Assembly (NCBI GenBank): GCA_964443845.1
Contig: CAYUFA010000009.1
Span: forward strand, 218-64,217
Reading direction: 5' to 3'
Length of the DNA stretch: 64,000 nucleotides
DNA from: an uncultured Ectothiorhodospiraceae bacterium
GTDB taxonomy: Bacteria; Pseudomonadota; Gammaproteobacteria; UBA9214
Each line of letters begins with the position of its first letter. Within the stretch, counting starts at the first letter, position 1. The notes under the pieces are model-generated. The model saw only the letters and a list, made by a program, of their open reading frames with translations. It was not told the DNA's origin and made no database searches. This document shows positions 5,785 to 63,014 of this stretch, in pieces. The position numbers were made by a program, and so were the translations under genes.

Positions 5785-6023
5785 TCGACGCGTCTTCGTT
5801 TCTCACCGCAAGGCGCGCCGTCCGGACGCGGATTCTCTGCGCTGGATACGCGGTTGCGAAGGTGACGCCCGGCTCTCCGGTGCGGCGGACCATCTTGTTG
5901 CGGGCTCGCGGGCGCGGCTTCACGGCCGTTGACCGGGATTAATCAAAACAGGAGGCGGGCCCGGCCCATGCTGCCGCGCGGCCGTCCATACGGGTCGTTC
6001 GGCATCAGACTGGTGACAGTGCC

Positions 6024-20167: not shown

Positions 20168-20241
20168 AGGCTACCCCCGCGGCGGGTCGGCCGCAATTAG
20201 TGTCGAAGTTGTCAATAAACCATGAAAAAACCGCAGGCGAA

Positions 20242-20255
20242 TTGACGGTCGTCAA
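20242..20255. promoter_or_regulatory. FNR-type palindromic box TTGACGGTCGTCAA in hypC / hydrogenase-protease divergent promoter
   Basis: Perfect TTGAC-N4-GTCAA, 54-67 bp upstream of the protease ATG and about 75 bp upstream of hypC. Flanked by direct repeats GTCAATAAA(C/G)CATGG. Confidence 0.5.
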
Positions 20256-20308
20256 TAAAGCATGGAACAGCATGCGCTAGATATGGGTCCGGTCCAGAGG
20301 GGTAATTG

Positions 20309-24841: not shown

Positions 24842-26563
24842 ATGACCGAGCGCGTCGTTGTTGATCCTATTACCCGCATCGAAGGCCACCTGCGCATCGA
24901 GGCGCAAATGGACGGTGACCGAATTGCCAAGGCATACTCGGCCGGCACCATGGTGCGTGGCATCGAGATCATCCTGCGCGGACGCGATCCGCGCGACGCC
25001 TGGGCGTTTGCACAGCGCATCTGCGGTGTCTGCACGCTGGTGCACGGCCTGGCATCGATCCGCGCAGTGGAGAATGCGCTGGATTACGAAATTCCGCCGA
25101 ATGCCCAGCTGATCCGCAACCTCATGAGCGGTGCGCAGTACATCCATGACCACGTCATGCATTTCTATCACCTGCATGCACTCGACTGGGTGGACGTGGT
25201 TTCCGCACTGCAAGCCGACCCCAAGGCGACCTCGGACCTGGCCCAGTCCATCAGCAACTATTCGCGTTCCTCGCCCGGGTACTTCTCCGACGTCAGGAAG
25301 AAGCTCAAGGACTTCGTGGAATCCGGTCAGCTGGGAATCTTTGCCAACGCCTACTGGGGCCACCCGGCCTACAAACTGCCGCCGGAGGCCAATCTGATGG
25401 CCGTCGCGCACTACCTCGATGCGCTGGCCTGGCAGCGGGACGCCGCCAAGCTGCACGCCATCTTCGGCGGCAAGAATCCGCATCCGAATTTCCTGGTCGG
25501 GGGGGTTGCCTGCCCGATTGATCTCAATTCGGACTCCGCCATCAATGCCGAGCGGCTCGCGCAGGTGCAGCGGATCATCACGCAGATGCGTGATTTCGTC
25601 GACCAGGTCTACATTCCCGATCTGCTCGCGATCGCCGGCTTCTACAAGGACTGGGGCGGGCGCGGGGAAGGACTCGGCAACTTCCTTACCTACGGGGATT
25701 TCCCCGAACACGGCATGAACGATCCGGCCTCTTTCCTGATCCCGGGTGGAGCCATCCTCAATCGCGACCTGTCTACCATTCACCCGGTCGACATGAACGC
25801 CAGCGACGAAATCCAGGAGTTCGTGGCACATTCCTGGTACGACTACTCGACCGGCAAGGAGAACGGTCTGCATCCCTACGACGGAGAGACCAGCCTGAAC
25901 TACACCGGGCCGCAGCCGCCGTATCGTGCACTGGACGTGGACCAGTCCTATTCCTGGCTGAAGTCGCCGCGCTGGAAGGGACACGCGATGGAAGTCGGGC
26001 CACTGGCACGCGTGCTGATGCTGTATGCCACTGGCCATGAGCAGACCAAGGAACTGGTCAACATGACGCTGGGCAAGCTGGACGTCCCGGTGCAGGCGCT
26101 GTTTTCCACGCTGGGCCGTACCGCGGCACGCGGGCTGGAGACCAAGATCATCGCAGACCACATGCAGACCTGGTATGACCACCTGGTGGCAAACATCAAG
26201 GCCGGCGACACCAAGACCTTCAACGAGAAGTTGTGGGAACCATCGAGCTGGCCGAAGACGGCCCGCGGGGTCGGCTTCATGGAGGCGCCGCGCGGCGGGC
26301 TGGCGCACTGGATCGTGATCGAGGACGAGATCATCAAGAACTACCAGGCGGTGGTTCCGAGCACCTGGAACGCGGGCCCGCGCGACCCGAACGGCCAGCC
26401 GGGTGCCTACGAGGCAGCACTGGCCGACAACCACACGCTGTATGACCCGAAACAGCCCGTCGAGATCCTGCGCACCATCCACAGTTTCGACCCGTGCATT
26501 GCCTGCGCCGTGCACGTCACCGATCCGGATGGCGAGGAACTGATCAAGGTCAAGGTGCGCTGA
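24842..26563 (+). CDS. hynL: [NiFe] hydrogenase large subunit
   Basis: RIEGH N-terminal motif, RICGVCT and C-terminal DPCIACAVH Ni-Fe ligands, followed by a cleavable extension. Confidence 0.92.
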   Translation: MTERVVVDPITRIEGHLRIEAQMDGDRIAKAYSAGTMVRGIEIILRGRDPRDAWAFAQRICGVCTLVHGLASIRAVENALDYEIPPNAQLIRNLMSGAQYIHDHVMHFYHLHALDWVDVVSALQADPKATSDLAQSISNYSRSSPGYFSDVRKKLKDFVESGQLGIFANAYWGHPAYKLPPEANLMAVAHYLDALAWQRDAAKLHAIFGGKNPHPNFLVGGVACPIDLNSDSAINAERLAQVQRIITQMRDFVDQVYIPDLLAIAGFYKDWGGRGEGLGNFLTYGDFPEHGMNDPASFLIPGGAILNRDLSTIHPVDMNASDEIQEFVAHSWYDYSTGKENGLHPYDGETSLNYTGPQPPYRALDVDQSYSWLKSPRWKGHAMEVGPLARVLMLYATGHEQTKELVNMTLGKLDVPVQALFSTLGRTAARGLETKIIADHMQTWYDHLVANIKAGDTKTFNEKLWEPSSWPKTARGVGFMEAPRGGLAHWIVIEDEIIKNYQAVVPSTWNAGPRDPNGQPGAYEAALADNHTLYDPKQPVEILRTIHSFDPCIACAVHVTDPDGEELIKVKVR

Positions 26564-26609: not shown

Positions 26610-27137
26610 ATGTCACTGAACTCAATTTGCAAGATTTTGATCACTGCCATCCTGCTGCTGGTTGCACCACTGGCCTCGGCGCATCCCGGGCACGCCGGGG
26701 CCGGGCTGGTCGACGGATTCATGCACCCGGCTACCGGCATCGATCACCTGCTGGTGGCTATCGCCGCCGGCTACTGGGCGGCGCGGCGTGATGATCACGG
26801 GCTGCATGGACACGGACTGTTCATGGGGCTGTTCGTGGCGGGGATCCTGCTGGGCGCGGCGGGTATCCGCTGGTTCCAGGTCGATATCACGCCGGCACTG
26901 ATGCTGGTGCTGATCGTAGTGGTCATCACGGTGGCCATCGGCGCCACATCCTGGTTCCTGCATGCGCTGTTCGGCAGCCTGGCCCTGTACCAGGGCGTGC
27001 AACACATGGCCGGGATGCCGGCGGATACGCCCCTGACCGGGTTCGCGCTCGGCCTGGTGCTGGCAACGGGCGTGCTGCTGCTCGTCGGCCAGATGGTGCG
27101 CCATGTCGTCAGTTCGCGCACGCCGCATTCACCGTGA
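26610..27137 (+). CDS. hupE: HupE/UreJ family nickel transporter
   Basis: Signal peptide then HPGHAG...GFMHP...GIDHLL His-rich motifs and 6 TM. Confidence 0.8.
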   Translation: MSLNSICKILITAILLLVAPLASAHPGHAGAGLVDGFMHPATGIDHLLVAIAAGYWAARRDDHGLHGHGLFMGLFVAGILLGAAGIRWFQVDITPALMLVLIVVVITVAIGATSWFLHALFGSLALYQGVQHMAGMPADTPLTGFALGLVLATGVLLLVGQMVRHVVSSRTPHSP

Positions 27138-27174
27138 CAGGACACTGACAGAACAACAACGACCGGAGGGGTAC

Positions 27175-27684
27175 ATGAGCGCTGCAGATTGCACGGAATT
27201 GCCGGTCAATGCCGCCGTGGTCCAGGGTTCCCCGCTGGGCGAGGAACTGGACGACGCGCAGTGCGAGGCACTGGCCGGGGTCATGTCGGCGTGCGCAATC
27301 AAGGACTGTTCCTACCTGCTCCGGGAGGGCCAGAAGGACGACTGCCTGTACGTGCTGGTCAAGGGGAACATGGAGGCGGTCGCCCAGGCCGCTTCGGGCG
27401 ACCCGGTCGGCCTGCACATCCTGCGTGCGGGTGATATCCTCGGTGCCCTCGGATTCCTGGATGGCGTGGAACACTCCGCCAGCCTGCGGGCCATTGGTAA
27501 CTGCGAACTCTTGCGGCTCGACCGGAGCGCGCTGGAGGGCCTGCTGGACCATGATCGCGACATCGTTTACAAGGTGATGCGCGCGATCATGCGCAACGTG
27601 CATCGCATCCTGCGCAACATGAACTTCCAGCAGGTGGAACTGACCCGCCACATCGAGCGGCAGAACGAGCACTACCGGAAATAA
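27175..27684 (+). CDS. cyclic-nucleotide-binding domain protein (no DNA-binding domain)
   Basis: cNMP-binding beta-roll pattern (YLLREGQKDDCLYVLVKG...GDILGALGFLDG...SLRA). Only 169 aa. Confidence 0.6.
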   Translation: MSAADCTELPVNAAVVQGSPLGEELDDAQCEALAGVMSACAIKDCSYLLREGQKDDCLYVLVKGNMEAVAQAASGDPVGLHILRAGDILGALGFLDGVEHSASLRAIGNCELLRLDRSALEGLLDHDRDIVYKVMRAIMRNVHRILRNMNFQQVELTRHIERQNEHYRK

Positions 27685-46756: not shown

Positions 46757-47950
46757 TTACCCGGGCTGGCCGTCCACGCGGGGCCGGGCCAGTATGGGCA
46801 GGAAGCGGACCAGGAACAGGGCGAAGGCCAGCAGCCACAACAGCTGGGCCAGGCCCACCCAGTCCCGGTACCAGGCCGGTGCCAGCAGTGGCAGCAGCAC
46901 ACGCACCGCAGTAGCGGCCAGCAGCAGGGTGAAGGCCACGAACAACACCGCCGGTGGTTCAGCCACGTCGCGGCCGGTATGTCCCAGCGAGACGCGGGCC
47001 ATCATGCCGAGCGTGATCATGCCGATGCCACCCACGGCGAAGGCATGCAGCGACAGCAGCGGTGACACGCCCAGGGCCACCGCCGCCTTCAGGGCAAAGC
47101 CGGCGACGATCCAGCCATAGCCCAGGTACAGCACCCATAGCAGCGGCCGGGTCCAGATTCCCGGGGTGTACCAGCCGGCCAGCTTCACGCTGTGCACCAG
47201 GGTCAATGCCAGCGCCAGCACGAACACGGGCGCGGTATCCGGCCGCGCCAGGTCGGCCAGCCAGAAGGCCAGGAACAGGGCCAGTCCCGTGCCATCGAGC
47301 CAGGGGCGGCTGGCCAGGCGGACGGCGAAGCCGACGCCGCGCTCGATGAAAAAGGGAAATACCCGGCTGGCCATGACGAGGATGAGCGCGATCACCAGAT
47401 ATACGCCCGAGTACAGCCCGAGCCGCACGCCATCCGCCACCAGCCCCTGCAGGCCGGCGTAGAACACGAGGTTGCTGGCCAGCAGCAGGACCAGTTTCGA
47501 CAGGATACCGAGCTGTTTCCACTGCCGGGCCCGGAGGACCGGCACCAGCAGGCTGACGATCAGTCCGAGTTCGAACGCGCCGTCGAACAGCACCTGCAGG
47601 GGCAGGGTGCCCGGCGCATCGAAAAAGAACAGTACACGCGCCGCCAGCCAGGCCAGCGCCAGCAGGAGCAGCGGATAGCCCCGCAGCGTCTGGATACCGG
47701 TCCAGTTGCGTACGGCCGTCAGCAGGAAGCCGGCGATGACGGCCATGCCGTAGCCGAAGATCATTTCATGCGCATGCCAGATGACGGGGGTGAGTGACGG
47801 CGATGCGGGATGCCAGCCCGCCTGGTACATCGCGGTCCACGCCAGCATCGCGAGCAGCGAGTACCCGGCCGCGGCGCTGAAAAACAGGCGGAAGCCCAGG
47901 TTCAGGATCGCCGGGTACCCGGCTGGCACCGCGGTGTCGGAAGCCGGCAC
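46757..47950 (-). CDS. nnrS: NnrS family heme-copper membrane protein (NO-stress response)
   Basis: 12-TM protein with NnrS conserved His pattern. Start is 3 nt after the tauD-like stop. Confidence 0.85.
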   Translation of the reverse strand: MPASDTAVPAGYPAILNLGFRLFFSAAAGYSLLAMLAWTAMYQAGWHPASPSLTPVIWHAHEMIFGYGMAVIAGFLLTAVRNWTGIQTLRGYPLLLLALAWLAARVLFFFDAPGTLPLQVLFDGAFELGLIVSLLVPVLRARQWKQLGILSKLVLLLASNLVFYAGLQGLVADGVRLGLYSGVYLVIALILVMASRVFPFFIERGVGFAVRLASRPWLDGTGLALFLAFWLADLARPDTAPVFVLALALTLVHSVKLAGWYTPGIWTRPLLWVLYLGYGWIVAGFALKAAVALGVSPLLSLHAFAVGGIGMITLGMMARVSLGHTGRDVAEPPAVLFVAFTLLLAATAVRVLLPLLAPAWYRDWVGLAQLLWLLAFALFLVRFLPILARPRVDGQPG

Positions 47951-47953
47951 GGT

Positions 47954-48886
47954 TCAGCTGCGGGCCACGCGCTGGTAGTAGCGCAAGCGGAAGAGCTGGC
48001 GCTTGCAGTGGTCGCTGTCGGTGAACCCGCTGCGGTCATGCAGGACGTTGTTGCAGATGAGTCCCTGGCCGGCCTGCAGGGTGGCGCGGAAGATGTAGGG
48101 GGAGTCCGACTGCAGCAGGGCATCCAGCGCGTCCAGCGCGGCGCGCACCAGCGGATCGGGCGCCCACTCGATGCTGCGGGTGCGCGCGGTATAGCGCATG
48201 TGCAGCTGTCCGTCGTCGCGGATCGAAAACACCGGCCCGGTCCGTGCCGGGCGCAGCTCCGTGTCTCCCGACTGGTTGGGGGGGATGGTCATGACGTCAG
48301 GCCGCATCAGCACGCGGATGAAATCCGGGTTGCTATCGCGCAGGTGCAGGTAGGCGATCTCGTGGTCGAGCAGGGCGTTGGCGCCACCGGTGGCTGCCGG
48401 GGAGGCACAGTGCAGCTGCAGTCCGTGAATCTGGCGCTCCGGCTCGTTGTAGTAGCCGTCGGTATGCCAGTGAATCGGACGATTGGTATACGGGATGTAG
48501 TCCGCCCGCCACTCCCCGTCCGCGACCTGCAGGGTCGAGATGCCATCGTCGTCTGCGCCCCGGTTGCGGTCCAGTGTGGTGAGGCCGCATTGCCGGCCCA
48601 GCACGGCCGGCAGCTGCCGGTCGCTGCCCGTATCGGCCTTGCAGTTATAGAGCGCCATGTTGGTGCGCCGGCAACGGTAGAGAATGGCGTCGTGCTCGAC
48701 CCGGGACAGCCGTGCCGGGTTCTTCACCTCGACCATCAGCTCGCCGATTCCGGCCGGGTAGCCGTTCAGCTTGTGCTCACGCCAGGTTGCATAGGCCTCC
48801 CGGTTGTCCGGGTCGAAGGGACTGCCCGCGTGCCGGCGGGGCGGGCTGGATCGGGTGGCAGGCTGGCAGGCGGGTTGAACGTGCAT
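47954..48886 (-). CDS. TauD/TfdA-family Fe(II)/2-oxoglutarate dioxygenase-like protein
   Basis: IHWHTDGYY HxD motif. Probable real start at MVEVKN (48736) by comparison with TauD N-terminal length. Confidence 0.55.
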   Translation of the reverse strand: MHVQPACQPATRSSPPRRHAGSPFDPDNREAYATWREHKLNGYPAGIGELMVEVKNPARLSRVEHDAILYRCRRTNMALYNCKADTGSDRQLPAVLGRQCGLTTLDRNRGADDDGISTLQVADGEWRADYIPYTNRPIHWHTDGYYNEPERQIHGLQLHCASPAATGGANALLDHEIAYLHLRDSNPDFIRVLMRPDVMTIPPNQSGDTELRPARTGPVFSIRDDGQLHMRYTARTRSIEWAPDPLVRAALDALDALLQSDSPYIFRATLQAGQGLICNNVLHDRSGFTDSDHCKRQLFRLRYYQRVARS

Positions 48887-48910
48887 GGTCCCGTTATAGG
48901 GTGCGGTTCC

Positions 48911-48924
48911 GGGGGGTGTCCTTG
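48911..48924. promoter_or_regulatory. FNR/DNR-type box TTGATCCAGGTCAA upstream of tauD-like/nnrS unit
   Basis: TTGAT-N4-GTCAA in the ubiH-like/tauD-like intergenic region. Confidence 0.5.
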
Positions 48925-49069
48925 ATCCAGGTCAACGCCGCCGGATCCCCGGCGACTTGCCGTGCCCGGGAAAGACGCCGGAACCGGCAAGGAATTCAGG
49001 TGGTTAGTGCGTCTTTCCTGCCATGCCCGGCACTCTGCCGGGACTCCGCCGCTGACGGCCGGTCGGCGG

Positions 49070-50302
49070 CTAGCGCAGGAACGGCAGGCGCAGGAAGAGG
49101 TTATTCGCGGCGTGCCGCTCGATGAGCTGGTTGGCGATCATGCGCTTGATTGGTGGGCAGTGGTTACCGAAGCGCAGCGCCAGTTTTCGCAACACCTTTG
49201 CCGGCGCCCGGTCATCCGTGAACAGGCCGACGATGTGGTTCGTTCCGGCATAGAGCGGCCGGGTCACGCGGCGCTGGGTCGACTGGTAGCGCTCCAGCAC
49301 GGCGGGTGCCCCGATATCGCCCCGCACGGCCCGGGCCCGGCGGATTTCCGCGGCCAGCGTGGCCTGGCCGCGCAAGCCCAGGTTGAAGCCATGCGCGGTG
49401 ACCGGGTGCATGCCGACGGCGGCATCGCCGACCAGGGCGCAGCGCCGGGCCACGAAGCGATTGGCATGCACGGCCACCAGCGGGTAGGCATGGCGCTGGC
49501 CCACCAGCTGCATCTCGCCCAGCCGGTCGTCGAAGCGCTGGCGGATATCGGCCGAAAACGTGTGCTCGTCCTGCGCCAGGATGGCATCCGCCTGGTCCGA
49601 TGACACGGTCACCACGATGGACGCCAGTTGCGGGCGCAGCGGCAGCACGGCCAGCGTCCGTCCGTAGTGGAAACACTCGAAGGCGATACCCCGGTTATCT
49701 CGCTCGTGCTGCATGCGGCAGACGATGGCCGCGCGGCCGAAGTCGTGCATGTCGGCGGAAATGCCCATCCAGCGCCGGGTCTGCGAGAACCGGCTGTCGG
49801 CGGCCACCAGCAGCGCGGCGCGCACGCTGCGTTCCCCGGACAGTTGTACGTGTGCGGCAGCCGCGTCCGTGTGCACGCCGCTCACGGTGGTGTCCGTGCG
49901 GATCTCGGTGCCGGGCAGGGTGAGTGCCTGTTCGATGAGTGCCCGGCGAATGTCATGGTTGGCGACCAGGAAACCCAGTGCGTCCACGCCGAATTTCGCG
50001 TTGTCGAAGTCCAGCACGTACGGGGAGGTGCCGTCCAGCACCTGCGCCTTGCGGATCGGGTGGATCGCCCCGGCCGGGATGCGTTGCCAGACGCCGAGCT
50101 GCTCCAGCAGTTGCCGGGACAGGTGCGTCAATGCGATATCGCGCCCGTCCGCTGCCGGGCAGCGCAGGTCCTCCAGGGAGTGCTGTTCGACGACCAGGGT
50201 GCGCAGGCCGCTGCCGGCCAGGGAGCAGGCGAGGCTGAGACCCGCCGGGCCTGCACCGTTGATGATGATGTCGAACTCGGTGTCTGTCGTTGCGTGGCTC
50301 AT
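49070..50302 (-). CDS. UbiH/UbiF/VisC/COQ6-family FAD-dependent monooxygenase
   Basis: IIINGAGPAGLSLA Rossmann motif, DG and GD(A/S)AH motifs (LVGDAAVGMHPVTAHGFNLG). ATG overlaps the stop of the Crp/Fnr gene. Confidence 0.8.
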   Translation of the reverse strand: MSHATTDTEFDIIINGAGPAGLSLACSLAGSGLRTLVVEQHSLEDLRCPAADGRDIALTHLSRQLLEQLGVWQRIPAGAIHPIRKAQVLDGTSPYVLDFDNAKFGVDALGFLVANHDIRRALIEQALTLPGTEIRTDTTVSGVHTDAAAAHVQLSGERSVRAALLVAADSRFSQTRRWMGISADMHDFGRAAIVCRMQHERDNRGIAFECFHYGRTLAVLPLRPQLASIVVTVSSDQADAILAQDEHTFSADIRQRFDDRLGEMQLVGQRHAYPLVAVHANRFVARRCALVGDAAVGMHPVTAHGFNLGLRGQATLAAEIRRARAVRGDIGAPAVLERYQSTQRRVTRPLYAGTNHIVGLFTDDRAPAKVLRKLALRFGNHCPPIKRMIANQLIERHAANNLFLRLPFLR

Positions 50303-50991
50303 TTCGATGTGTACCCTGCGTCGAGTTGGTGGATGTCCGGGATATGGATGATATTGCCTTCCACGCGTACCAGTCCGGCATTCTGCAGGTTGCGCAGGAT
50401 GCGTGACAGTGATTCCGGCTGGATCGAGAGACGCGAGGCAATGACATGCTTGGGTGCAGCCAGTTCGATGCTGATGTCGAACTGCTGGCCGGGCGGTGCC
50501 TGCTGCAACAGGAAATTGGTAAAGCGCAGGGAAGCATTCTGCAACGTCAGCGCGTGGATATCGTTGAGCTGCCGCTTCAGCCACGTGCTCATGTCGGCCA
50601 TGAGCCGGAAGCAGGTGTCGGTGGACTCGCGCAGGATTCCCCGGAAGGCGGAGTTGGAGAAGGCCAGGACCTCGGTCTTGCCCAGTGCGCTGGCATTGAC
50701 CGGGTAGCGCTCTCCGTCCATGAAGGTGATGGCCTCGGCGAAGGTTTCGCCCGGCGCCACGAGGTGCAGCACCTTCTCGGCGCCATCGGGGGTGGACAGG
50801 AACAGCCGGACCGATCCTTCGCGCACCAGGAAAAAGTGTCGTGCCGGTTGCTGGCTGGCAAACAGCAGCTGGCCATCGTCGAGGTGTTGCTGGTACGCGC
50901 TCTGCAGCAGCCGTGACATCTGTCTGTCATCGAGACCGGCGAACAGGGGGTGGCGGCGCAGCTCCTGCTGCAATTCCTGGTTCTGGTGCAT
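50299..50991 (-). CDS. Crp/Fnr family regulator, DNR/NNR type (no N-terminal Cys cluster)
   Basis: cNMP-like sensor domain, HTH with E--SR recognition motif (QPESLSR), no FNR Cys cluster. Start at MHQNQELQ. Confidence 0.75.
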   Translation of the reverse strand: MHQNQELQQELRRHPLFAGLDDRQMSRLLQSAYQQHLDDGQLLFASQQPARHFFLVREGSVRLFLSTPDGAEKVLHLVAPGETFAEAITFMDGERYPVNASALGKTEVLAFSNSAFRGILRESTDTCFRLMADMSTWLKRQLNDIHALTLQNASLRFTNFLLQQAPPGQQFDISIELAAPKHVIASRLSIQPESLSRILRNLQNAGLVRVEGNIIHIPDIHQLDAGYTSK

Positions 50992-51071
50992 GGGCCGAGC
51001 ATACCCAATGTGCCGGGAAACTGCATGGGGGCCGGTCAGGTCCGGGTACATCGGTACCCGCTGGCAGGACC

Positions 51072-51145: not shown

Positions 51146-51206
51146 GCACAGGACGGAATCATCGTACTCGCAAGTCTGTCGCGCCGGGAATGGAGTCAGA
51201 AACCCC

Positions 51207-51220
51207 TTAACCGGGGTCAA
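51207..51220 (+). promoter_or_regulatory. NNR/DNR-type box TTAACCGGGGTCAA upstream of DUF2249 gene
   Basis: TTAAC-N4-GTCAA, about 100 bp upstream of the DUF2249 ATG. Confidence 0.55.
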
Positions 51221-51317
51221 GGCGGCCGTGGTGGCACCCTGACACAGTCCACGGCCGTGAAAATCACACCGGGACAGGCCGGGATACCCGCAGCCCGTCC
51301 CGTGACGGCGAGAGTCA

Positions 51318-51581
51318 ATGGCGCAGGAACAGGTACTCGATACCCGCCACATGAGCATGCCGGAACCCCTGCTCGCAGCGCTGGCCGCACTCGATGCGTT
51401 GCCGGCAGGCATGGTGCTGCGCCTGATCACGGAGCGTGATCCGTTGCTGCTGTACCCCCTGCTCGAGGCGCGCGGGTTGCACTGGACCCGACTGGGAGGC
51501 GGTGCGGACGGCTGGCAGATCCTGATCCGGCATACCGGTGACCACGCCGCGGGCGATGCCGGCGCGTCCGGGCAGCCTTAA
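51318..51581 (+). CDS. DUF2249-domain protein (denitrification-cluster associated)
   Basis: PEPLLAALAALDALPAGMVLRLITERDPLLLYPLLEARG matches the DUF2249 pattern seen next to nor/nnrS genes. Confidence 0.6.
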   Translation: MAQEQVLDTRHMSMPEPLLAALAALDALPAGMVLRLITERDPLLLYPLLEARGLHWTRLGGGADGWQILIRHTGDHAAGDAGASGQP

Positions 51582-51591
51582 CTCAGGTCAA
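51578..51591 (+). promoter_or_regulatory. NNR/DNR-type box TTAACTCAGGTCAA upstream of norC
   Basis: TTAAC-N4-GTCAA, about 65 bp upstream of the norC ATG. The TAA stop of the DUF2249 gene lies inside the box. Confidence 0.6.
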
Positions 51592-51648
51592 GGCCGGTGC
51601 CGGCCCCGGATACTAGTCTGCCGGGCAGACGGACGGTCAGGAGGACAT

Positions 51649-52083
51649 ATGAGCGGGACATTCACCAAGTCGATGGCGCGCAATATCTTTTACGGCGGCG
51701 CGGTATTTTTCTTTCTGCTGTTCGTTGCGCTGACCTTCGACACCACACGGGCACTGCCAGAACGCGACAACCGTGCAGCGATCACGCCGGTGGTGGCGCT
51801 GGGCAAGCGGATCTGGGAGGAGAACGACTGTATCGGCTGCCACACACTGCTCGGCGAAGGCGCCTATTTCGCACCGGAACTCGGTAACGTCTACACCCGC
51901 TTCGGCAACAGCAAGGAGGCGATCATGGCGTTCATCAAGAGCCGTCCGGAGCAAGGCATACCGGGCCGCCGCAGCATGCCGCAATTCCATTTCACCGACG
52001 AGGAACTGAATGCGCTGGCCGAGTTCCTCAAGTATTCATCCGAAATCAACACATCCGGATGGCCGCCGAACATCCAGGGCTGA
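51649..52083 (+). CDS. norC: nitric oxide reductase subunit C (cytochrome c)
   Basis: N-terminal TM anchor and CIGCH heme c motif. Confidence 0.9.
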   Translation: MSGTFTKSMARNIFYGGAVFFFLLFVALTFDTTRALPERDNRAAITPVVALGKRIWEENDCIGCHTLLGEGAYFAPELGNVYTRFGNSKEAIMAFIKSRPEQGIPGRRSMPQFHFTDEELNALAEFLKYSSEINTSGWPPNIQG

Positions 52084-53496
<1,413 letters not shown>

Positions 53497-53828
53497 GGAA
53501 CCTCGGCACAGGCCACTGAACCGGCCCTCACTTCGTTGCAAAGGCGCTCGGAATGCTCATTTACGCGCGCTGTAAACTGTGCTTCCTCACGCCTTTGCGC
53601 CTTGTGACCTTCCGGTTGATTGACCTGCGCAGAGGTTCCCTGGACGCAGACAACATAGCACGGCATCCGGCCCGCCTGCCGCGGGCAGCACCGACCCGGT
53701 CGGGCTGCCCGCGGCGCTTCCCGCCCCCGGGCGCTTGATGCAGGTTATGGCGGACTGTCCGCTGCGGGGCTAGCCTGCCGGGTGTGACAGCAACCCCTGC
53801 CGGACATGCAGGTGCAGTGAGACAACCC

Positions 53829-54641
53829 ATGGACACCAGTAGCGCACGCAGTACCGCACCCGATGCCCTGCCCTATTACGAAGCGCAGGGCAACGAGGTG
53901 GCGTTGTTCGAGTATGCCTGGCGCCACCGGCTGCCCATGCTGATCAAGGGTCCGACCGGCTGCGGCAAGACGCGCTTCGTGCAGTACATGGCCGCGCGGC
54001 TGGGCCGGCCGTTGTACACGGTGGCCTGTCACGACGACCTGTCCGCGGCAGACCTCGTCGGGCGGCACCTGATCGGCGACCAGGGCACGTTCTGGAATGA
54101 CGGGCCGTTGACCCGCGCCGTACGCGAGGGTGCGATCTGCTATCTCGACGAAGTCGTCGAGGCGCGCAAGGACACCACCGTGGTGCTGCACCCGCTGACC
54201 GACGACCGGCGCATGCTGCCGATCGAACGTACCGGCGAGCAGTTGCAGGCACCGGCGGAGTTCATGCTGGTGGTGTCCTACAATCCCGGTTACCAGAACC
54301 TGCTCAAGGGTATGAAGCCGAGTACGCGCCAGCGCTTCGTGGCGCGGCGTTTCGATTTTCCGGCCCCGGACCTGGAAGAACGCATCCTGCAGGGCGAAAC
54401 CGGGATCGGTGCCGCACTCGCACGGCGCCTGGTGGTGCTGGCCGGAGCCCTGCGCAACCTCAAGGACCATGACCTGGAAGAAGCGGCCTCGACGCGGTTG
54501 CTGGTGTATGCCGCTACCCTGATCCATGGCGGATACGATGCGCTGGAGGCCTGCCGCTGTGCGCTGGTCGAGCCGCTGACCGATGACGAGGAGACGGCCG
54601 CCGCGCTGCTGGAGGTAGTCCATGCCAGCTTCGGTACCTGA
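53829..54641 (+). CDS. norQ: NorQ/NirQ/CbbQ AAA+ ATPase
   Basis: GPTGCGKT Walker A, DE Walker B (CYLDEV), CbbQ/NorQ C-terminal region. Confidence 0.9.
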   Translation: MDTSSARSTAPDALPYYEAQGNEVALFEYAWRHRLPMLIKGPTGCGKTRFVQYMAARLGRPLYTVACHDDLSAADLVGRHLIGDQGTFWNDGPLTRAVREGAICYLDEVVEARKDTTVVLHPLTDDRRMLPIERTGEQLQAPAEFMLVVSYNPGYQNLLKGMKPSTRQRFVARRFDFPAPDLEERILQGETGIGAALARRLVVLAGALRNLKDHDLEEAASTRLLVYAATLIHGGYDALEACRCALVEPLTDDEETAAALLEVVHASFGT

Positions 54642-55014
54642 GCAGCCGGCAGCCGGACAGTCACTCGCCGTGCTTGCCGAAGTCCTCTACCTGGCCAACC
54701 TGCTGCTGTTGCCGGGGATCGCCTTCCTGGTGCTGCTGGTGCTCTATTACCGGAACATCGGCCGTGCGGCGGCATTGCCTGCCGGTCACCTGCGGCAGAC
54801 CGTCGCCGCCAGCCTGTGGGCCGGTGCGCTGCTGGTGGTGGCCAATCTCAGCATCGTGTTACTGGGCGGCTATCGCAGCCCGCATACCTGGGTGGTGGTG
54901 ATCATCTACTTCACCACCTGCCATTCCACGCTGGTATTGCTGGGTGTGCTGGGCCTGGCGCGTGCCCTGGCCGGACAACCGTTCCGGTATCCACTGATCG
55001 GCAGGCCGCTCTGA
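54622..55014 (+). CDS. small integral membrane protein in norE/F position
   Basis: 130 aa with about 4 TM. Overlaps the norQ 3' end by 20 nt. No family recognised. Confidence 0.4.
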   Translation: MPASVPEQPAAGQSLAVLAEVLYLANLLLLPGIAFLVLLVLYYRNIGRAAALPAGHLRQTVAASLWAGALLVVANLSIVLLGGYRSPHTWVVVIIYFTTCHSTLVLLGVLGLARALAGQPFRYPLIGRPL

Positions 55015-55015
55015 T

Positions 55016-56017
55016 ATGCCGCTCTCCGCGCACCGGCAGCAGATTCTGCGGCGCTTCCTGCAGGGCGGCTTCTTCCTGCTGTTCCTGCTGGCCCCGGCGC
55101 TGGACATCCTGCGCTTCGACCTGACGCAGGGACATGCCATCCTGTTCGGCCTGCCGTGGACGCTGGGCCTGGATGATTTCGTGGCCGGCCGCATTGGTCC
55201 GGTCCAGGCAGCCGTCAATATCATCCTGCGCGGTTTCCTCCCGCTGTTGCTCGTCGGCGGGGCCCTGCTCGGCATGGCCTGGCGTTACGGGCGCCTGTAC
55301 TGCGGCTGGCTGTGCCCGCATTTTTCCGTGGTGGAACGCATCAACCGCTGGATGCAGCGCGCCACCGGCAAACCGAGCGTCTGGGAGCGCGCGCCGTTGC
55401 CGGAGCGGCAGCCGGACGGCAGCGCGCTGCCGCGTAACCGGGTGTACTGGGTCGTCACGGTATGCGCCGCGGCCGGGTTCGCGCTGTTGTGGGCGGTCAC
55501 CCTGCTGACCTACCTGCTGCCGCCGCACCTGATCTGGCACAACCTGCTGACCCTGAGCCTGACGCCGAACCAGGCCCGCTTCATCGGCGTGGCCACGCTC
55601 CTGCTCACGGTCGATTTCCTGTTCGCGCGCCATCTGTTCTGCCGCTTCGGCTGCGCGGTCGGCCTGTTCCAGAGCCTTGCCTGGATGGCCAACCCGCGCG
55701 CGCTGGTGGTCGGTTTCGAGAAACACCGTGCGGCTGCCTGTGCGGAGTGCAACAACGCCTGTGACAATGCCTGCCCGATGCGGCTGCGTCCACGCAGCAT
55801 CAAGCGCCGCATGTTCACCTGTACCGAATGCGCGCAATGCATCCACGCCTGTGACCAGGTACGGGTTGCCGACCCGCAGGGCGGCCTGTTGCACTGGGTC
55901 GCGGGCGCAGCGGCCCTGCCGGTGGAGACGGGCCGGCAACCGCGTACCACGCCAACGCAGCCAGGCGAGAGATCCGCCCCGTGGAAGAGTTCGTCGGTCA
56001 GCTCTGGCACCGCCTGA
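55016..56017 (+). CDS. NapH/MauN-like membrane polyferredoxin (4Fe-4S binding)
   Basis: TM helices, CGWLCP and CRFGCAVG motifs, and C-terminal CAECNNACDNACP / CTECAQCIHAC ferredoxin motifs. Confidence 0.6.
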   Translation: MPLSAHRQQILRRFLQGGFFLLFLLAPALDILRFDLTQGHAILFGLPWTLGLDDFVAGRIGPVQAAVNIILRGFLPLLLVGGALLGMAWRYGRLYCGWLCPHFSVVERINRWMQRATGKPSVWERAPLPERQPDGSALPRNRVYWVVTVCAAAGFALLWAVTLLTYLLPPHLIWHNLLTLSLTPNQARFIGVATLLLTVDFLFARHLFCRFGCAVGLFQSLAWMANPRALVVGFEKHRAAACAECNNACDNACPMRLRPRSIKRRMFTCTECAQCIHACDQVRVADPQGGLLHWVAGAAALPVETGRQPRTTPTQPGERSAPWKSSSVSSGTA

Positions 56018-57807
56018 TCACGCGTGCGGCACGGCGTTCGTACCCGGAGGCCGTGGTGACGCTGGAGACGGTCGGCCACGGCGCGGGCATCCTGTTCCGT
56101 GCGCTGGGCGGGGACGGCGGGCTGCGGATCGAGGCGGGCGACGCCACCGCCAGCGGGGCACGGCGCAGCTGGCTGGCGCGCATCGCCGGGACCCGGCGCA
56201 CGGTTGAACTGGCCTGGCGTGACGACCAGGCGCTGCGCCTGCCGGCGCGGATCGACTGCTTTCCGGACCGGGCCCTGAACCGTGACCTGTACCTGTGGCT
56301 TGCCGCGCTGGCGGCGCGACCGGAACCGGCCGGTGACTGGTTTGCCGGCAGCCAGCAGCGTACCCGGGCCGTGCTGGAGGCGTACCCGGGTTTGCGGGCC
56401 CGGTACCGGCGTCTGGTCGATGCCCACCTCGCGGGGCGCAGCGCGCCGGCACGGTTGCCGCCCGACGAGGCGGCGCAGGAGCACGCGATCCGCAGCGCCC
56501 TGCGGGAGCCCGGCAGCGTGCCGGTGCTGCCGGCCTGCCGCCGCCCGCCGCAACCGGTCCTGCTGTGGCTGCACCCGGCGGCGCCGGTCGTGTCCGCCAC
56601 CGCGGCCGACGCGGATTCCGCCGCCGCCGCGCGCGACACTCCCGTACGGGCACTGCAGGAGCAGCGCCGGCGCCGGGCGGAGCGGGTCGCGCAACCGGAC
56701 ACCGACCGGGGCCTGGTCACGGTGCGCATGGAGAACATTTTTACCTGGGGCGAGTACGCGCGCGTGGATCGTGCCGGGGAGGACAACGAGGATCTGCAGG
56801 AAGCCGCCGACGCGGCGGCATCGATCGACACCTTCAGCGTGACCCGGGATGGCAGGACCCGGGCCGCGCGCCTGCGCTTCGATCTCGACCTGCCCGCGGC
56901 CGAATGCGATGACCGGCCGCTGGGAGCAGGCATCCTGTTGCCGGAGTGGGATTACCGCACCCGCCGCCTGCAGCCGGATCGTTGCCGCGTCCAGCCGTTG
57001 CTGGCGGCGCGGGCAGCACCCTGCGCGCTGCCGGCACGCCTGCGCCGCACCGCGGCGCGCCTGCGTGCGCAGTTCCGGCAACTGGCACCGGCACGTTGCT
57101 GGCTGTCCGGACAGCCGGACGGCGCCGAGCCGGATCTCGAGGCCTGGCTGCGCTTCCGTGCCGAACGTGGCGGGCGGCAGGCCGTGGCCGGCGATCGCCT
57201 GTATCGGGACATGCGCAACGGATCGCGTGACCTGGCGTGCCTGTTGCTCGCCGATCTGTCGCTCTCCACCGACAGCTGGGTCAACGACACGGCGCGGGTG
57301 ATCGATGTAATCCGCGACAGCCTGTGGCTGTTTGCGGAAAGCCTGTCGGCCACCGGAGACCGGTTCGCCATGTACGGGTTTTCCTCGCGCCGGCGGGACC
57401 CGGTACGCGTGCACCAGCTCAAGACCTTCGACGAACCCTACAATGCAAGGGTGTGCGGCCGGATCGGTGCCATCCGGCCCGGGTATTACACGCGCATGGG
57501 TGCGGCCGTGCGCCATGCCAGCCGGCTGCTCGCGGACCAGGTCGCCAGCCGGCGGCTGTTGCTGCTGCTGACGGACGGCAAGCCCAATGATCTCGACCAC
57601 TACGAAGGGCGCTACGGTGTCGAGGATACCCGGCACGCCCTGCAACAGGCGCGCGAGTCGGGATTGCAGCCGTTCTGCGTGACGATCGACCGCAAGGCCG
57701 GCGATTACCTGCCTTACCTGTTCGGCAGCAACAGCTACGTGGTCATCCACCGGCCCTCGCAGCTGCCGCGTGCATTGCCGTCGCTGTATGCACGGCTGAC
57801 TGCGTGA
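55981..57807 (+). CDS. norD: NorD (von Willebrand factor A domain protein for cNOR activation)
   Basis: C-terminal VWA domain (LLLLTDGKPND MIDAS motif). Size and position after norQ. Confidence 0.85.
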   Translation: MEEFVGQLWHRLITRAARRSYPEAVVTLETVGHGAGILFRALGGDGGLRIEAGDATASGARRSWLARIAGTRRTVELAWRDDQALRLPARIDCFPDRALNRDLYLWLAALAARPEPAGDWFAGSQQRTRAVLEAYPGLRARYRRLVDAHLAGRSAPARLPPDEAAQEHAIRSALREPGSVPVLPACRRPPQPVLLWLHPAAPVVSATAADADSAAAARDTPVRALQEQRRRRAERVAQPDTDRGLVTVRMENIFTWGEYARVDRAGEDNEDLQEAADAAASIDTFSVTRDGRTRAARLRFDLDLPAAECDDRPLGAGILLPEWDYRTRRLQPDRCRVQPLLAARAAPCALPARLRRTAARLRAQFRQLAPARCWLSGQPDGAEPDLEAWLRFRAERGGRQAVAGDRLYRDMRNGSRDLACLLLADLSLSTDSWVNDTARVIDVIRDSLWLFAESLSATGDRFAMYGFSSRRRDPVRVHQLKTFDEPYNARVCGRIGAIRPGYYTRMGAAVRHASRLLADQVASRRLLLLLTDGKPNDLDHYEGRYGVEDTRHALQQARESGLQPFCVTIDRKAGDYLPYLFGSNSYVVIHRPSQLPRALPSLYARLTA

Positions 57808-57815
57808 GTTGACCC

Positions 57816-59447
57816 GTGTCAAGGTCCGGCCGGAAACTGAGCAGCGGGTTGCGTGGAGCCGATCCACACGGGGGCAGCCTGCAGCACGGAAATTCACTCC
57901 ATGCGCCGCGGTGCCGGCGCCATGCGCTGCCGGCCTGCCTGCTGGTGGCGCTGCTGTCGTGGTGGCAGCCGTGCGCTGCCGCCACGGTCGAGGCCCTGGC
58001 CCGGCAGTATTTTCCGCAGGCCGATCGTGTCGGACCGTTCGAGGGTGACCCGCTGGCGGCCGCGGTCTACCGGCAGGACCGGCTGCTCGGTTACGTGCTC
58101 CGCACCACGGACGTTGCACCGATCCCGGCCTATTCGGGCAAGCCAATCACGCTGCTCGTGGGCGTGGACGTTGCCGGCCACATCACCGGCCTGGAGGTGA
58201 CCCGGCACTCCGAGCCGATCCTGGTGATCGGCGTATCCGACCAGGACCTGCGACATTACGTCGACCAGTACCGCGGCGTATCGGTGCGCAAGCAGGTGAA
58301 GATCGGCGGCGCACCGCGCGAGGGCTATGTCACCATCGACGGCATATCCGGCGCCAGCATCACCTCCATGGTCATGAATGCCACGGTGATGAAGGCGGTG
58401 CAGAAGGTGGCCGCAGCGCGCGGCATTCCGGCACCTGCGGGTGACGCCGTGCCGGTGCCGGCGGGCGGGGACGCTACGCTGGAAGGCGCGCCGGTGGACG
58501 CCCCGGACTGGTGGCTCGGGAACCAGGAGGAGCCCTTCTGGGTGAACGTGTGGCGCGAACGTACCTGGCAGATCGTGGTCCTGTGCTGCGCGCTCGTCAC
58601 GCTGACCGTCATCCTGCTGTTCCAGGACTGGCTGGCGCGGCGTCCGCAGCTGCTGCGCAGGATACGCACCGGGTTCCTGCTGTTCACCTGCGGTTTCATC
58701 GGCTGGTATGCACTGGCGCAACTCTCGATTATCCACGTGCTGACGTTCATCAACGCGTTGCTGCACCAGTTCAGCTGGGAATCCTTCCTGGTCGATCCGC
58801 TGATTTTCATCCTCTGGGGGTTCGTGGCCCTGACGCTGCTGCTGTGGGGGCGCGGGGTGTATTGCGGCTGGCTCTGCCCGTTCGGTGCGCTGCAGGAACT
58901 GCTGTTCCAGATCGCGCAGCGTGCGGGCATGCGGGAGTACCGCCTGCCCGAAGTGGTGCATGAACGCCTGACCGCACTGAAATACGTGATCTTCGTTGCG
59001 CTGTTCGGCCTGTCACTGCAATCGATCGGTTATGCCGCGCAGGCAGCCGAGGTGGAGCCCTTCAAGACCGCCATCGTCATGCATTTCCTGCGTGACGGTG
59101 CGTATTTCTGGTACGCGGTTGCCTTGCTGATGCTGGCCGTGCTCAACCGCAAGTTTTTCTGCAAGTATCTGTGCCCGCTCGGTGCGGCCCTGGCGATTCC
59201 GGCACCGCTGCGGATTTTCGACTGGTTGCGCCGGCGCAAGGAATGCGGGCGCCCCTGCCAGATCTGCGCGGTCCAGTGCGAGGTGCATGCGATCCGTCCC
59301 ACCGGAGAGATCAACCCGAACGAGTGTCATTACTGCCTGGATTGCCAGGTGACCTACTGGGACAACCGCCAGTGTCCGCCGCTCGCGGAAAAACGCGTGC
59401 GGCGTGAAAAGAGCCGGGCGGCGCTCGAGCGCCTTGCCGGACAGTGA
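57816..59447 (+). CDS. NosR/NirI-family membrane protein (FMN-binding domain + polyferredoxin)
   Basis: FMN_bind motif TIDGISGASITS, 6 TM, CGWLCPFGALQE, and C-terminal Cys clusters. Shorter than canonical NosR. Confidence 0.7.
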   Translation: MSRSGRKLSSGLRGADPHGGSLQHGNSLHAPRCRRHALPACLLVALLSWWQPCAAATVEALARQYFPQADRVGPFEGDPLAAAVYRQDRLLGYVLRTTDVAPIPAYSGKPITLLVGVDVAGHITGLEVTRHSEPILVIGVSDQDLRHYVDQYRGVSVRKQVKIGGAPREGYVTIDGISGASITSMVMNATVMKAVQKVAAARGIPAPAGDAVPVPAGGDATLEGAPVDAPDWWLGNQEEPFWVNVWRERTWQIVVLCCALVTLTVILLFQDWLARRPQLLRRIRTGFLLFTCGFIGWYALAQLSIIHVLTFINALLHQFSWESFLVDPLIFILWGFVALTLLLWGRGVYCGWLCPFGALQELLFQIAQRAGMREYRLPEVVHERLTALKYVIFVALFGLSLQSIGYAAQAAEVEPFKTAIVMHFLRDGAYFWYAVALLMLAVLNRKFFCKYLCPLGAALAIPAPLRIFDWLRRRKECGRPCQICAVQCEVHAIRPTGEINPNECHYCLDCQVTYWDNRQCPPLAEKRVRREKSRAALERLAGQ

Positions 59448-59579
59448 GCGCTAATGCCCGCCGGGTGTGCGCCTGCGCGCGCAACGGATCTGTGCGGGGC
59501 GCAACCGTGCCGCTGCGCCACGCGCGAAAATCCCGCAAGCGGCTGTAAATCCTGCTGAATCCGGGCTGCCAGGAACACC

Positions 59580-59593
59580 TTAACCTACGTCAA
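59580..59593 (+). promoter_or_regulatory. NNR/DNR-type box TTAACCTACGTCAA upstream of nirS
   Basis: TTAAC-N4-GTCAA, about 70 bp upstream of the nirS ATG. Confidence 0.6.
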
Positions 59594-59617
59594 GGTATCC
59601 CGGGAGCACACCGGTAG

Positions 59618-61390
<1,773 letters not shown>

Positions 61391-61503: not shown

Positions 61504-61830
61504 ATGCGAATGACATTCGACACTCTGTTGCTCATCATGACGGCCGCCGGCATGGCGGCAACGGCCGGTGCCGCTCCCGACTCCGCACGCCAGTCCGAGC
61601 TGTTGTACCTGCTGAACCAGGATTGCAGTGCCTGTCATGGCATGACGCGCAAGGGTGGCCTGGGGCCGCCCCTGCTGCCATCGAGCCTGCGCGACCGTCC
61701 GACCCGCCTGCTGGTGACCACCATACTCGACGGCCGGCCGGGTACACCCATGCCACCGTGGCGCGGCGAACTTTCCGAACAGGACGCGCAATGGCTGGTG
61801 GAAGCCTTGCGCAGGGGAGAGGGCCTGTGA
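61504..61830 (+). CDS. nirC: monoheme cytochrome c (NirC / c55X)
   Basis: Signal peptide and CSACH heme motif. Position between nirS and nirF. Confidence 0.8.
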   Translation: MRMTFDTLLLIMTAAGMAATAGAAPDSARQSELLYLLNQDCSACHGMTRKGGLGPPLLPSSLRDRPTRLLVTTILDGRPGTPMPPWRGELSEQDAQWLVEALRRGEGL

Positions 61831-63014
61831 ATCATTCCGTGAGTGCACGTCTGTGGCTGGCCATACTGTTGCTGGCCGTCGCACAATCCCCGTCCGCCGC
61901 CTGCCTGCTGCGGGGCACCGGCGATCTCGGTGTCGTGATCGAACGCGCCAGCGGCAGCGTGCAGGTGGTCGATACCACGGCGCGCAGCAGCCTGTTCCGC
62001 GTTACCGGGCTGGGCGACCTGTCGCACGCCTCGGTGGTGTTCTCGCGCGATGCCCGCTATGCCTACGTGTTCGGACGGGACGGGGGACTGTCCAAAATCG
62101 ACCTGCTGTGCGGGCGGCTGGACAAGCGGGTGATGCAGGCCGGCAACAGCATCGGTGGCGCCATCTCGCAGGACGGCAGACTGGTCGCGGTATCCAATTA
62201 CACGCCGGGCGGTGTGAAGGTGTTCGATGCCGCCACGCTGGACCAGGTGGCCGACCTGCCGGCGCTCGATGACAAGGGGCATTCCTCGAAGGTGGTCGGG
62301 CTGGTCGATGCCCCCGGCCAGCGCTTCGTCTACACGCTGTACGATGCCGGTGAAATCCGGATTGCCGACATGTCCGACCCGCATGCCCCGAAGGTGGAGC
62401 GCTTCAGGGACATCGGCCGCCAGCCCTACGATGCCCTGATCACTCCGGATGGCCGTAATTACATCGCCGGCCTGTTCGGCGAGGACGGGCTGGTACGTCT
62501 GGATCTGTGGCAGGACAAGCCGGTCCCGCAGCGGATCCTGGATCACTACGGGCGCGGCGAGAAGAAACTGCCGGTCTACAAGATGCCGCACCTGGAAGGA
62601 TGGGCCGTGGCCGGTCGACGGATATTCCTGCCGGCCGTCGGTCACCATGAGGTGCTGGTGATGGACAGCGACAGCTGGCAGGAGGCCGGACGCATCCCGG
62701 TGCACGGCCAGCCGGTGTTCGTCGAGGCCGAGCCGGGCGGCCGCCACGTGTGGGTGAATTTTGCACACCCGCTGAATGACACCGTACAGGTCATCGATAC
62801 GCAGACCCTGAAGGTGATCGCCACGCTGAAGCCGGGCAAGGCCGTATTGCACATGGAGTTCGCGCCGCGCGGCGCGGCGGTCTGGGTATCGGTGCGCGAC
62901 GACGACGTGGTTCGCATCTACGATACGACCACCTTCAGGGAACTGGCGCATCTGCCGGCGGAAAAGCCCAGCGGTATATTCTTTACCGATCGTGCGCACC
63001 GGGTCGGGCTCTGA
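61827..63014 (+). CDS. nirF: NirF (cd1-like beta-propeller protein for heme d1 biosynthesis)
   Basis: GTG start overlapping the nirC stop. Signal peptide. Homologous to the NirS propeller but lacking the heme c motif. Confidence 0.85.
   Translation: MNHSVSARLWLAILLLAVAQSPSAACLLRGTGDLGVVIERASGSVQVVDTTARSSLFRVTGLGDLSHASVVFSRDARYAYVFGRDGGLSKIDLLCGRLDKRVMQAGNSIGGAISQDGRLVAVSNYTPGGVKVFDAATLDQVADLPALDDKGHSSKVVGLVDAPGQRFVYTLYDAGEIRIADMSDPHAPKVERFRDIGRQPYDALITPDGRNYIAGLFGEDGLVRLDLWQDKPVPQRILDHYGRGEKKLPVYKMPHLEGWAVAGRRIFLPAVGHHEVLVMDSDSWQEAGRIPVHGQPVFVEAEPGGRHVWVNFAHPLNDTVQVIDTQTLKVIATLKPGKAVLHMEFAPRGAAVWVSVRDDDVVRIYDTTTFRELAHLPAEKPSGIFFTDRAHRVGL

Follow-up and report, generated by a model that had tools for sequence, protein, structure and literature searches.

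The window, a stretch of 64,000 nt from contig CAYUFA010000009.1 (assembly GCA_964443845.1) of an uncultured Ectothiorhodospiraceae bacterium, carries a nor-nir gene cluster with copies of an FNR-type box, TTAAC-N4-GTCAA, upstream of several of its genes. Gene layout was based on Pfam, NCBIfam and homologue alignment. A dnr-like gene for a Crp/Fnr regulator (50299-50991, - strand; 230 amino acids; Pfam cNMP_binding and HTH_Crp_2) is divergent from a gene of the DUF2249 family (51318-51581, + strand; 87 amino acids; PF10006, E 2e-14). The + strand continues with norC (51649-52083; Cytochrom_C), norB (52102-53496; COX1), norQ (53784-54641), an unnamed open reading frame (ORF) of 130 amino acids with no Pfam family (54622-55014), a second unnamed ORF with a Fer4_5 domain (55016-56017), norD (55981-57807), a NosR/NirI-like gene that extends to 59447, nirS for cytochrome cd1 nitrite reductase (59660-61390; Cytochrom_D1, E 2.8e-149), a nirF-like gene (61623-63014) and nirD/L (63017 onward). 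On the - strand lie, besides dnr, a ubiM-like hydroxylase gene (49070-50302), a tauD-like gene (47954-48886) and nnrS (46757-47950).

The whole window was scanned for TTAACNNNNGTCAA. Exact matches were found at 51207-51220, 51578-51591 and 59580-59593, all on the + strand, which agrees with the three boxes of the same orientation described in the initial annotation. Only 0.02 matches are expected in 64 kb, and three were reached in 0/100 shuffles. Box 1 (TTAACCGGGGTCAA, 51207-51220), box 2 (TTAACTCAGGTCAA, 51578-51591) and box 3 (TTAACCTACGTCAA, 59580-59593) are putative DNR-type activator sites of the DUF2249, norCB and nirS promoters, respectively. Their centres lie 104.5 nt before the DUF2249 start codon (ATG 51318), 64.5 nt before that of norC (ATG 51649) and 73.5 nt before that of nirS (ATG 59660). 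The motif agrees with the 14-bp inverted repeat TTGAT-N4-ATCAA at 9/10 core positions when Y and R are allowed at positions 5 and 10.

The core common to all three boxes extends to CC-TTAAC-N4-GTCAA-GG (18 bp), and their extended palindrome is CCTTrAC-N4-GTCAAGG. Since the flanks are unrelated to each other beyond these 18 bp, the boxes are not a repeated element. Chance matches or a mobile repeat without regulatory function would be compatible with the small number of sites and with nothing else. The expectation of 0.02, the absence of similarity past the core, and position-specific conservation in >100 loci make such an origin extremely improbable.

A looser FNR pattern, TTRAY-N4-RTYAA, gave 7 sites in the window versus 0.25 expected, the extra four being at 5929, 20242, 48922 and 57809. 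The last of these, box 4 (TTGACCCGTGTCAAGG; TTGACCCGTGTCAA, then GG), occupies 57809-57822 on the + strand upstream of the NosR/NirI-like gene. It has a canonical TTGAC distal half and begins one base past the norD stop, at the norD/nirI junction. The initial annotation had counted three boxes in the cluster; those three stand, and this fourth, canonical one had been missed.

Promoter conservation, geometry and the candidate regulator

The boxes were compared with those of 160 related loci, 80 genome loci from a Dnr alignment and 80 metagenome loci from NorC. All are from uncultured Gammaproteobacteria, with labels such as Ectothiorhodospiraceae, Acidiferrobacterales and Thiohalophilus, and are numbered L002, L003 and so on. 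A norC box lies 64–75 nt upstream in about 70 loci and a nirS box 66–92 nt upstream in most. The DUF2249 box is present in 22 distinct related sequences, and boxes are also kept at conserved distances upstream of DUF2249 and nirI-like genes in both genome and metagenome loci. A scan with a matrix of the sites had been suggested with the initial annotation. A position weight matrix (PWM) for DNR sites, trained on the relatives' sites alone, placed the window's boxes on top and above the 95th percentile of the null maximum at window scale (17.7). Scores were 24.4 at 51575 (box 2), 21.7 / 23.3 at 59577 (box 3), 19.8 at 57806 (box 4), 18.8 at 48919 and 18.1 at 51204 (box 1).

The two variants reported earlier outside the nor-nir genes were also present. 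The tauD-like/nnrS box (48922-48935, - strand; TTGATCCAGGTCAA, reading TTGACCTGGATCAAGG on the gene strand) is canonical, scores 18.3 and 18.8 and is followed by TATAAC 23 nt downstream; it is likely to share the nor/nir regulon. The FNR-type site at 20242-20255 (+ strand; TTGACGGTCGTCAA) lies between hypA and a hydrogenase-protease gene, with TAGATA 22 nt downstream. It has A/T flanks, the spacer GGTC and a DNR-site PWM score <10. This site probably lies outside the regulon, and what gives it a different flavour is flanks and spacer, not TTAAC versus TTGAC.

The best -10-like hexamer falls 21–23 nt downstream of the box in 56/61 orthologous promoters; in the window the spacing is 22 nt for boxes 1 and 2 and 21 nt for box 3. 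A control search on the opposite side of the box gave a flat distribution. In the DUF2249 promoter the predicted extended -10 (TGa CACAGT, 51240-51248, + strand) lies 22 nt after box 1; 13/14 orthologous promoters have a nAnAGT hexamer at exactly 22 nt, mostly with TGn before it. The predicted norC -10 (TAGTCT, 51614-51619, + strand) follows box 2 by 22 nt, which would put the centre of the box near -41.5. Close relatives (L002-L022) have TAGTCT, TAGGAT or TACCAT at 22–23 nt, the exception being L021 with CAGCAT. For nirS the predicted -10 (TAGCAT, 59615-59620, + strand) is 21 nt after box 3, and TAGCAT or TAGGAT occurs 21–22 nt past the box in L002, L003, L007, L009, L010 and L016. Box 4 is conserved in L002, L003 (as TTAAC), L007, L009, L010, L016 and L043, with TAGCGT, TAGCTT or TAGTTT 22 nt after it in L002, L009, L010 and L016.

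A generic scan of the region for sigma-70 promoters and terminators gave nothing above chance and no promoter containing a -35 element. An empty sigma-70 scan is what activator-dependent promoters should give, and the scan is uninformative on operon ends. Box spacing, the -10 and the missing -35 together point to class II FNR-type geometry.

Box 1 lies between divergent genes, and its use by dnr was considered. The spacing between box 1 and the DUF2249 -10 is fixed, whereas relatives differ in how far the box lies from the dnr start (43.5 to 222.5 nt). Box 1 was therefore assigned to DUF2249, and a role in serving dnr was rejected.

The dnr and tauD-like genes have an arrangement of their own. 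Each has a -10-like hexamer, 6 nt and then ATG (dnr, TATGCT, 50984-51006, - strand; tauD-like, TATAAC, 48884-48898, - strand), a spacing that places the start at the A of the ATG and suggests leaderless mRNAs. The dnr arrangement (TAAGCT/TATGCT, 6 nt, ATG) is kept in about 15 related loci together with an upstream element, AAACTGCA.

The start of the regulator was set from homologues at M58 of a long ORF, which gives 230 residues. The best match among solved structures is Pseudomonas aeruginosa DNR (3dkw, E 1.2e-37), end to end, and the next hit is at 1e-23. No NCBIfam model scored above its cut-off. In the recognition helix, SIQPESLSR, the E--SR motif of the FNR/DNR class is present; SIQPESxSR is invariant in 26 homologues. 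Since the protein has a single cysteine (C127), with no N-terminal or central cysteine cluster for [4Fe-4S], it lacks an FNR-type iron-sulfur cluster. The dnr gene adjoins nor/nir genes in the window and in >40 related loci. With a DNR-like regulator encoded divergently from DUF2249, and box positions and spacing conserved in dozens of loci, the local DNR/NNR-type regulon put forward in the initial annotation is well founded.

We consider the boxes to be sites, at class II position, for a homodimeric DNR-type activator (Crp/Fnr family, nitric oxide [NO]-responsive class) encoded at 50299-50991, with a probability of roughly 85%. The motif, its enrichment and conservation, the geometry and the family of the regulator were all observed. 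In the proposed mechanism, a dimer bound about 41.5 bp upstream of the predicted start would replace the -35 element and bring RNA polymerase to a weak -10. The nor-nir cluster would be driven by four promoters of this kind (DUF2249, norCB..., nirI-like and nirS...), and a fifth would probably drive tauD-like/nnrS.

Several points weigh against this assignment. Binding by the regulator, activation, the NO signal and the transcription starts are steps that we infer, the NO response from the target genes norCB, nirS and nnrS only, and the starts from predicted promoter elements. In the window's box 4 promoter the -10 position is degenerate (CAGCGG), with no convincing -10. At the positions of H139 and H187, which we take to be the heme ligands of P. 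aeruginosa DNR, this regulator has K139 and R187, and both are invariant in 26 homologues. H76 and C127 (motif DTCFRLMAD) are invariant instead, and the sensing chemistry of this DNR lineage may differ from that of P. aeruginosa DNR. Finally, the relatives are non-independent samples, and the conservation of the A in TTAAC comes from few ancestral promoters.

The start of the NosR/NirI-like gene downstream of box 4 is also odd. The ORF has no in-frame ATG, and the sole canonical in-frame start before a signal-like segment is TTG 57849, only 33.5 nt past the box 4 centre and too close for a -41.5 promoter. Out-of-frame ATGs at 57901 and 57922 are located where the NirI-like genes of relatives start. 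A decaying promoter, translational coupling to norD and an assembly indel are possible explanations.

Asymmetry of the distal half-site

The three boxes have A at the third position of the distal half, TTAAC in place of TTGAC. A/G usage was counted over distinct sequences from loci with dnr divergent from DUF2249-norC. The distal half of 22 DUF2249 promoters reads TTAAC in 17, CTAAC in 3, TTACC in 1 and TTGAT in 1, and the proximal half is GTCAA or ATCAA in 21/22. 10/13 norC promoters have TTAAC, and the other three have CTAAC, TAAAC and TTGAC. In the same comparison the four-base spacer occurs in nine variants, the surrounding intergenic DNA is unalignable and regulator identities fall to about 59%. 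Since the A was kept while spacer and intergenic DNA diverged, it behaves as a constrained position.

Other promoters of the same genomes were then set beside these. Among nirS promoters the A is distal in 4, proximal in 3 and absent in 8. The A variant is found in 1/7 nirI promoters and in 2/13 promoters downstream of dnr. Usage of A is about 95% at DUF2249/norC versus about 20% at the others. Because the other promoters mostly have G, the A is promoter-specific and not simply a preference of the regulator. The single orientation of the TTAAC half-site noted in the initial annotation holds across species for DUF2249 and norC; it does not hold for nirS, where L003, L010 and L029 have the A in the promoter-proximal half.

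Distant lineages in which norC follows dnr on the same strand (Dnr identity 41–50%) have canonical TTGAY at norC with no exception. A distal A recurs, though not universally, in independent lineages, at norC of L085, L086 and L131, and all three of these boxes are followed by a good -10 at exactly 22 nt. Judged from these promoters, TTAAC is a lineage trait and not an accident of the window.

These data could also reflect neutral, lineage-specific drift, in which the boxes are true DNR sites, A and G at distal position 3 are functionally equal and TTAAC was passed on by shared ancestry. The nirS promoters of the clade, with A distal, proximal or missing, fit drift, as do the TTGAC at norC of L002 and the variants that other lineages carry, for example TTGAC-TTAA-GTCAT. 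However, at DUF2249 and norC the A varies no more than the core T, T, A and C do, despite diverged spacer, flanks and intergenic DNA, and drift would not predict the sharp contrast in A usage between promoters of the same genomes. We regard drift as possible but somewhat unlikely. Most likely, the A at distal position 3 weakens or tunes the upstream half-site at particular promoters and has been kept by selection. In this lineage the proximal half and its flank (GTCAAGG) stay at consensus, and the distal half has A for G at position 3 at DUF2249 and norC.

A norC box of the form TTGAC-yTAr-GTCAT, which deviates at the outermost base of the proximal half, was found in 11 metagenome loci (L102, L111, L112, L116, L133, L138, L145, L146, L149, L153 and L158). 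Its existence means that lineage-fixed single-base deviations of norC boxes are not unique to the window's clade.

Box 2 overlaps the end of the DUF2249 gene, whose TAA stop (51579-51581) is the TAA of TTAAC. The initial annotation had read this overlap as a constraint of the regulatory site on the coding end. In a rival reading, with coding and regulatory function in conflict, the TTAAC of the norC box would be imposed by the need for a stop codon. The overlap itself is real and recurs. The stop is the TAA of TTAAC also in seven relatives (L003, L011, L016, L021, L089, L092 and L097), and it lies elsewhere in the box in L002 (spacer), L019 (proximal half) and L009 (degenerate TAAAC). It is not fixed, though. 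DUF2249 ends 30–41 nt or more before the box in L005, L010, L022, L081, L082, L105 and the closest relatives L083/L084 (41 nt in these two, with TTAAC kept), and the box is still TTAAC or CTAAC. Since TTGAC would supply an in-frame TGA, the stop cannot be what selects the A, and box 1 has TTAAC without any ORF across it. An A dictated by the stop is very unlikely and largely refuted. DUF2249 has a C-terminal tail without conservation and of varying length, which appears simply to run on into a promoter whose box contains many stop triplets.

The initial annotation had proposed at least two Crp/Fnr paralogues with distinguishable site preferences, which the present data do not support. In a refined form of that idea, the A separates paralogous regulators. 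A DNR with PES for PET in the recognition helix (Ser in place of Thr after the DNA-contacting Glu) would tolerate the distal A and an O2-sensing FNR/ANR paralogue encoded elsewhere would not, leaving the NO-reductase promoters to NO alone. In support, regulators beside TTAAC-type norC boxes have SIQPES and those beside canonical boxes have PET. A-type norC boxes occur at 10/11 genome and 8/8 metagenome PES loci of the main clade (18/19), versus 0/16 and 1/about 22 PET loci (1/about 38). A second, distant regulator lineage behaves alike. There, L085 and L168 are PES with TTAACaaatATCAA (TTAAC), and their PET relatives L152, L154 and L160 have TTGAYatttATCAA. The hydrogenase site, with its other flanks and its failure against the DNR-site PWM, also fits insulation.

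On the other side, tblastn of Dnr against the window and the 80 genome loci (10 kb to either side of dnr) found no second Crp/Fnr regulator. A third PES lineage (L143, L161, L163 and L167) lacks the A variant, and the PET locus L131 has TTAAC. PES genomes carry canonical nirI, nnrS and many nirS promoters, and in Dinoroseobacter shibae TTAAC sites respond to both FnrL and DnrD (PMC5398030). One apparent support also falls away. In the L143 group, the sequence TTGYCttagGTTAR found 68 nt before norC resembles an A-variant box and is really the -10 region (TAGGTT); the true box of that group, TTGATaaaaGTCAT, lies 22 nt upstream of TAGGTT. Orthologous promoters swap TTAAC and TTGAY under regulators with the helix SIQPES[L/F]SR, and typical NO-regulon genes (nirI, tauD-nnrS) carry canonical halves; as far as sequence can tell, the A and G variants do not separate by regulon.

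The association between PES and TTAAC reduces to two or three evolutionary events and is for that reason offered as a hypothesis, not a result. Under it, the SIQPES subtype would have gained tolerance for A at half-site position 3, and selection would keep distal TTAAC at the NO-reductase and DUF2249 promoters, either for insulation from an O2-sensing FNR paralogue or for a higher activation threshold. We hold this proposal to be doubtful, and insulation as such to be no less so. A literature search on Paracoccus NNR/FnrP site sequences and on ANR/DNR discrimination found nothing usable in the papers covered.

Other sites and neighbouring genes

Beyond the cluster's main boxes, the 290 nt between norB and norQ contain a weak FNR-like site (TTGATGCAGGTTAT, 53735-53748; PWM 15.0), 42.5 nt ahead of where the norQ ORF begins. 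L003 carries TTAACCCCGGTCAA upstream of norQ. An internal norQ promoter may be present at this site.

On the - strand, the stop codon of dnr and the start codon of the gene that follows it overlap as ATGA (50299-50302). The product of that second gene (49070-50302) matches NCBIfam PRK09126 (E 4e-162) and is a ubiquinone hydroxylase of the O2-dependent UbiM type. Relatives have in this place after dnr either nnrS or an S-adenosylmethionine (SAM) methyltransferase gene with its own canonical box upstream. In L014 (9700-10003) and L017 (9700-10003, reverse complement) the dnr-divergent box and -10 precede a hemerythrin-like gene (MTTIDEVMTAGHRTCDRYF...), not DUF2249. Boxes at L004:236, L006:9161 and L007:2817 precede another gene; its product begins with M(A/T)..PP..RIWWK and resembles a membrane subunit, either of a heme-copper oxidase or of an alternative NO reductase.

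In the hydrogenase promoter region, a 17-nt direct repeat, GTCAATAAA[C/G]CATG[A/G]AA, is present at 20211-20227 and again at 20251-20267, where it overlaps the FNR-type site (20242-20255) in the proximal half of that site. Further on, CTGATCAAGGTCAAGG at 26540-26553 (PWM 18.9) sits within the final codons of the gene for the large subunit of the [NiFe] hydrogenase (…ELIKVKVR*), and a HupE/UreJ gene (26610-27137) follows 63.5 nt downstream. The best -10 of the site lies off-register at 20 nt, and the hupE-like genes of L007 and L009 are preceded by equivalents of the site. It may be an internal promoter or a coding coincidence, and we leave it uncertain. Directly after hupE, ORF 27103-27684 (+ strand) was examined as a Crp/Fnr factor and rejected, as it has a cNMP-binding domain without a helix-turn-helix; it encodes a stand-alone cyclic-nucleotide-binding-domain protein of about 170 amino acids.

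The remaining match, TTGACCGGGATTAA at 5929-5942, follows a LysR gene and precedes a cold-shock-domain/DUF1294 gene (6024-6644) by about 95 nt. A -10 at class II spacing is missing, and the match is probably due to chance.

Comparison with known systems and meaning for the lineage

That FNR/DNR boxes precede nirS, norCB and nnrS is textbook knowledge. Escherichia coli FNR activates class II promoters with TTGAT-N4-ATCAA centred at -41.5. The window's promoters resemble these in having a 14-bp inverted repeat in place of the -35 and 21–23 nt to the -10. They differ in that the regulator lacks the [4Fe-4S] cysteines and in box flanks that are G/C (C...GG), not A/T. The Campylobacter jejuni nitrosative-stress regulator NssR (TTAAC-N4-GTTAA) is likewise a Crp/Fnr-family protein that uses TTAAC half-sites. 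NssR, however, has A180/Q181 in place of P/E and TTAAC in both halves, whereas the window's regulator keeps the Glu and its boxes have one TTAAC half.

The DNR regulon of beta- and gammaproteobacteria, known from P. aeruginosa and P. stutzeri, is similar in its regulator, without a Cys cluster and with the helix SIQPE-x-x-SR, in its targets nirS, norCB and nnrS, and in the C...G flanks common to the boxes. Its DNR consensus, CTTGATnnnnATCAAG, stands upstream of nirS, norB and nosZ (Rodionov et al. 2005, PMC1274295). Compared with P. aeruginosa DNR, the window has one TTAAC half-site, PES for PET (Ser for Thr), Lys and Arg in place of H139 and H187, and DUF2249 as the first regulon gene.

The identical motif, 5'-TTAAC-N4-GTCAA-3', is known from D. 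shibae. There it is found at -39.5/-41.5 of mapped transcription starts in the nirS/nosR2 and hemA3/dnrE promoters, and the nirS/nosR2 box is needed for anaerobic induction, which is abolished by its mutation (PMC5398030). In both systems such boxes precede nirS, a NosR-family gene and norC. The D. shibae norC box, TTGAC-N4-GTTAA, lies 67.5 nt before the start codon and has the A variant in the opposite half (PMC5398030). The alphaproteobacterium D. shibae has one FnrL, three Dnr proteins and bidirectional sites between divergent genes, whereas the window comes from an uncultured gammaproteobacterium with co-directional promoters and an A fixed in the distal half at two of them.

DUF2249 proteins have been tied to nitrate respiration and denitrification in Thermus (DrpA) and in the haloarchaeon Haloferax. 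The gene is placed here under putative DNR-type control. For annotation, the analysis supplies predicted promoters and a likely NO-responsive regulon for a sulfur-cycle-type lineage of uncultured Gammaproteobacteria, namely DUF2249, norCBQ..D, nirI-like, nirS... and tauD-like/nnrS. Control of this type is already known. What is new is a promoter-specific, conserved asymmetric half-site in this lineage, with a possible link to the recognition helix. Wider reach lies only in the promoter-specific G-to-A asymmetry and in its partial association with the Thr-to-Ser change in the recognition helix. If true, the association would provide a readable 'code' for telling near-identical FNR-family sites apart. 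If it were causal, one base in the site and one residue in the protein would offer a simple handle on the long-standing question of how FNR-family paralogues such as ANR/DNR and FnrP/NNR discriminate between near-identical sites.

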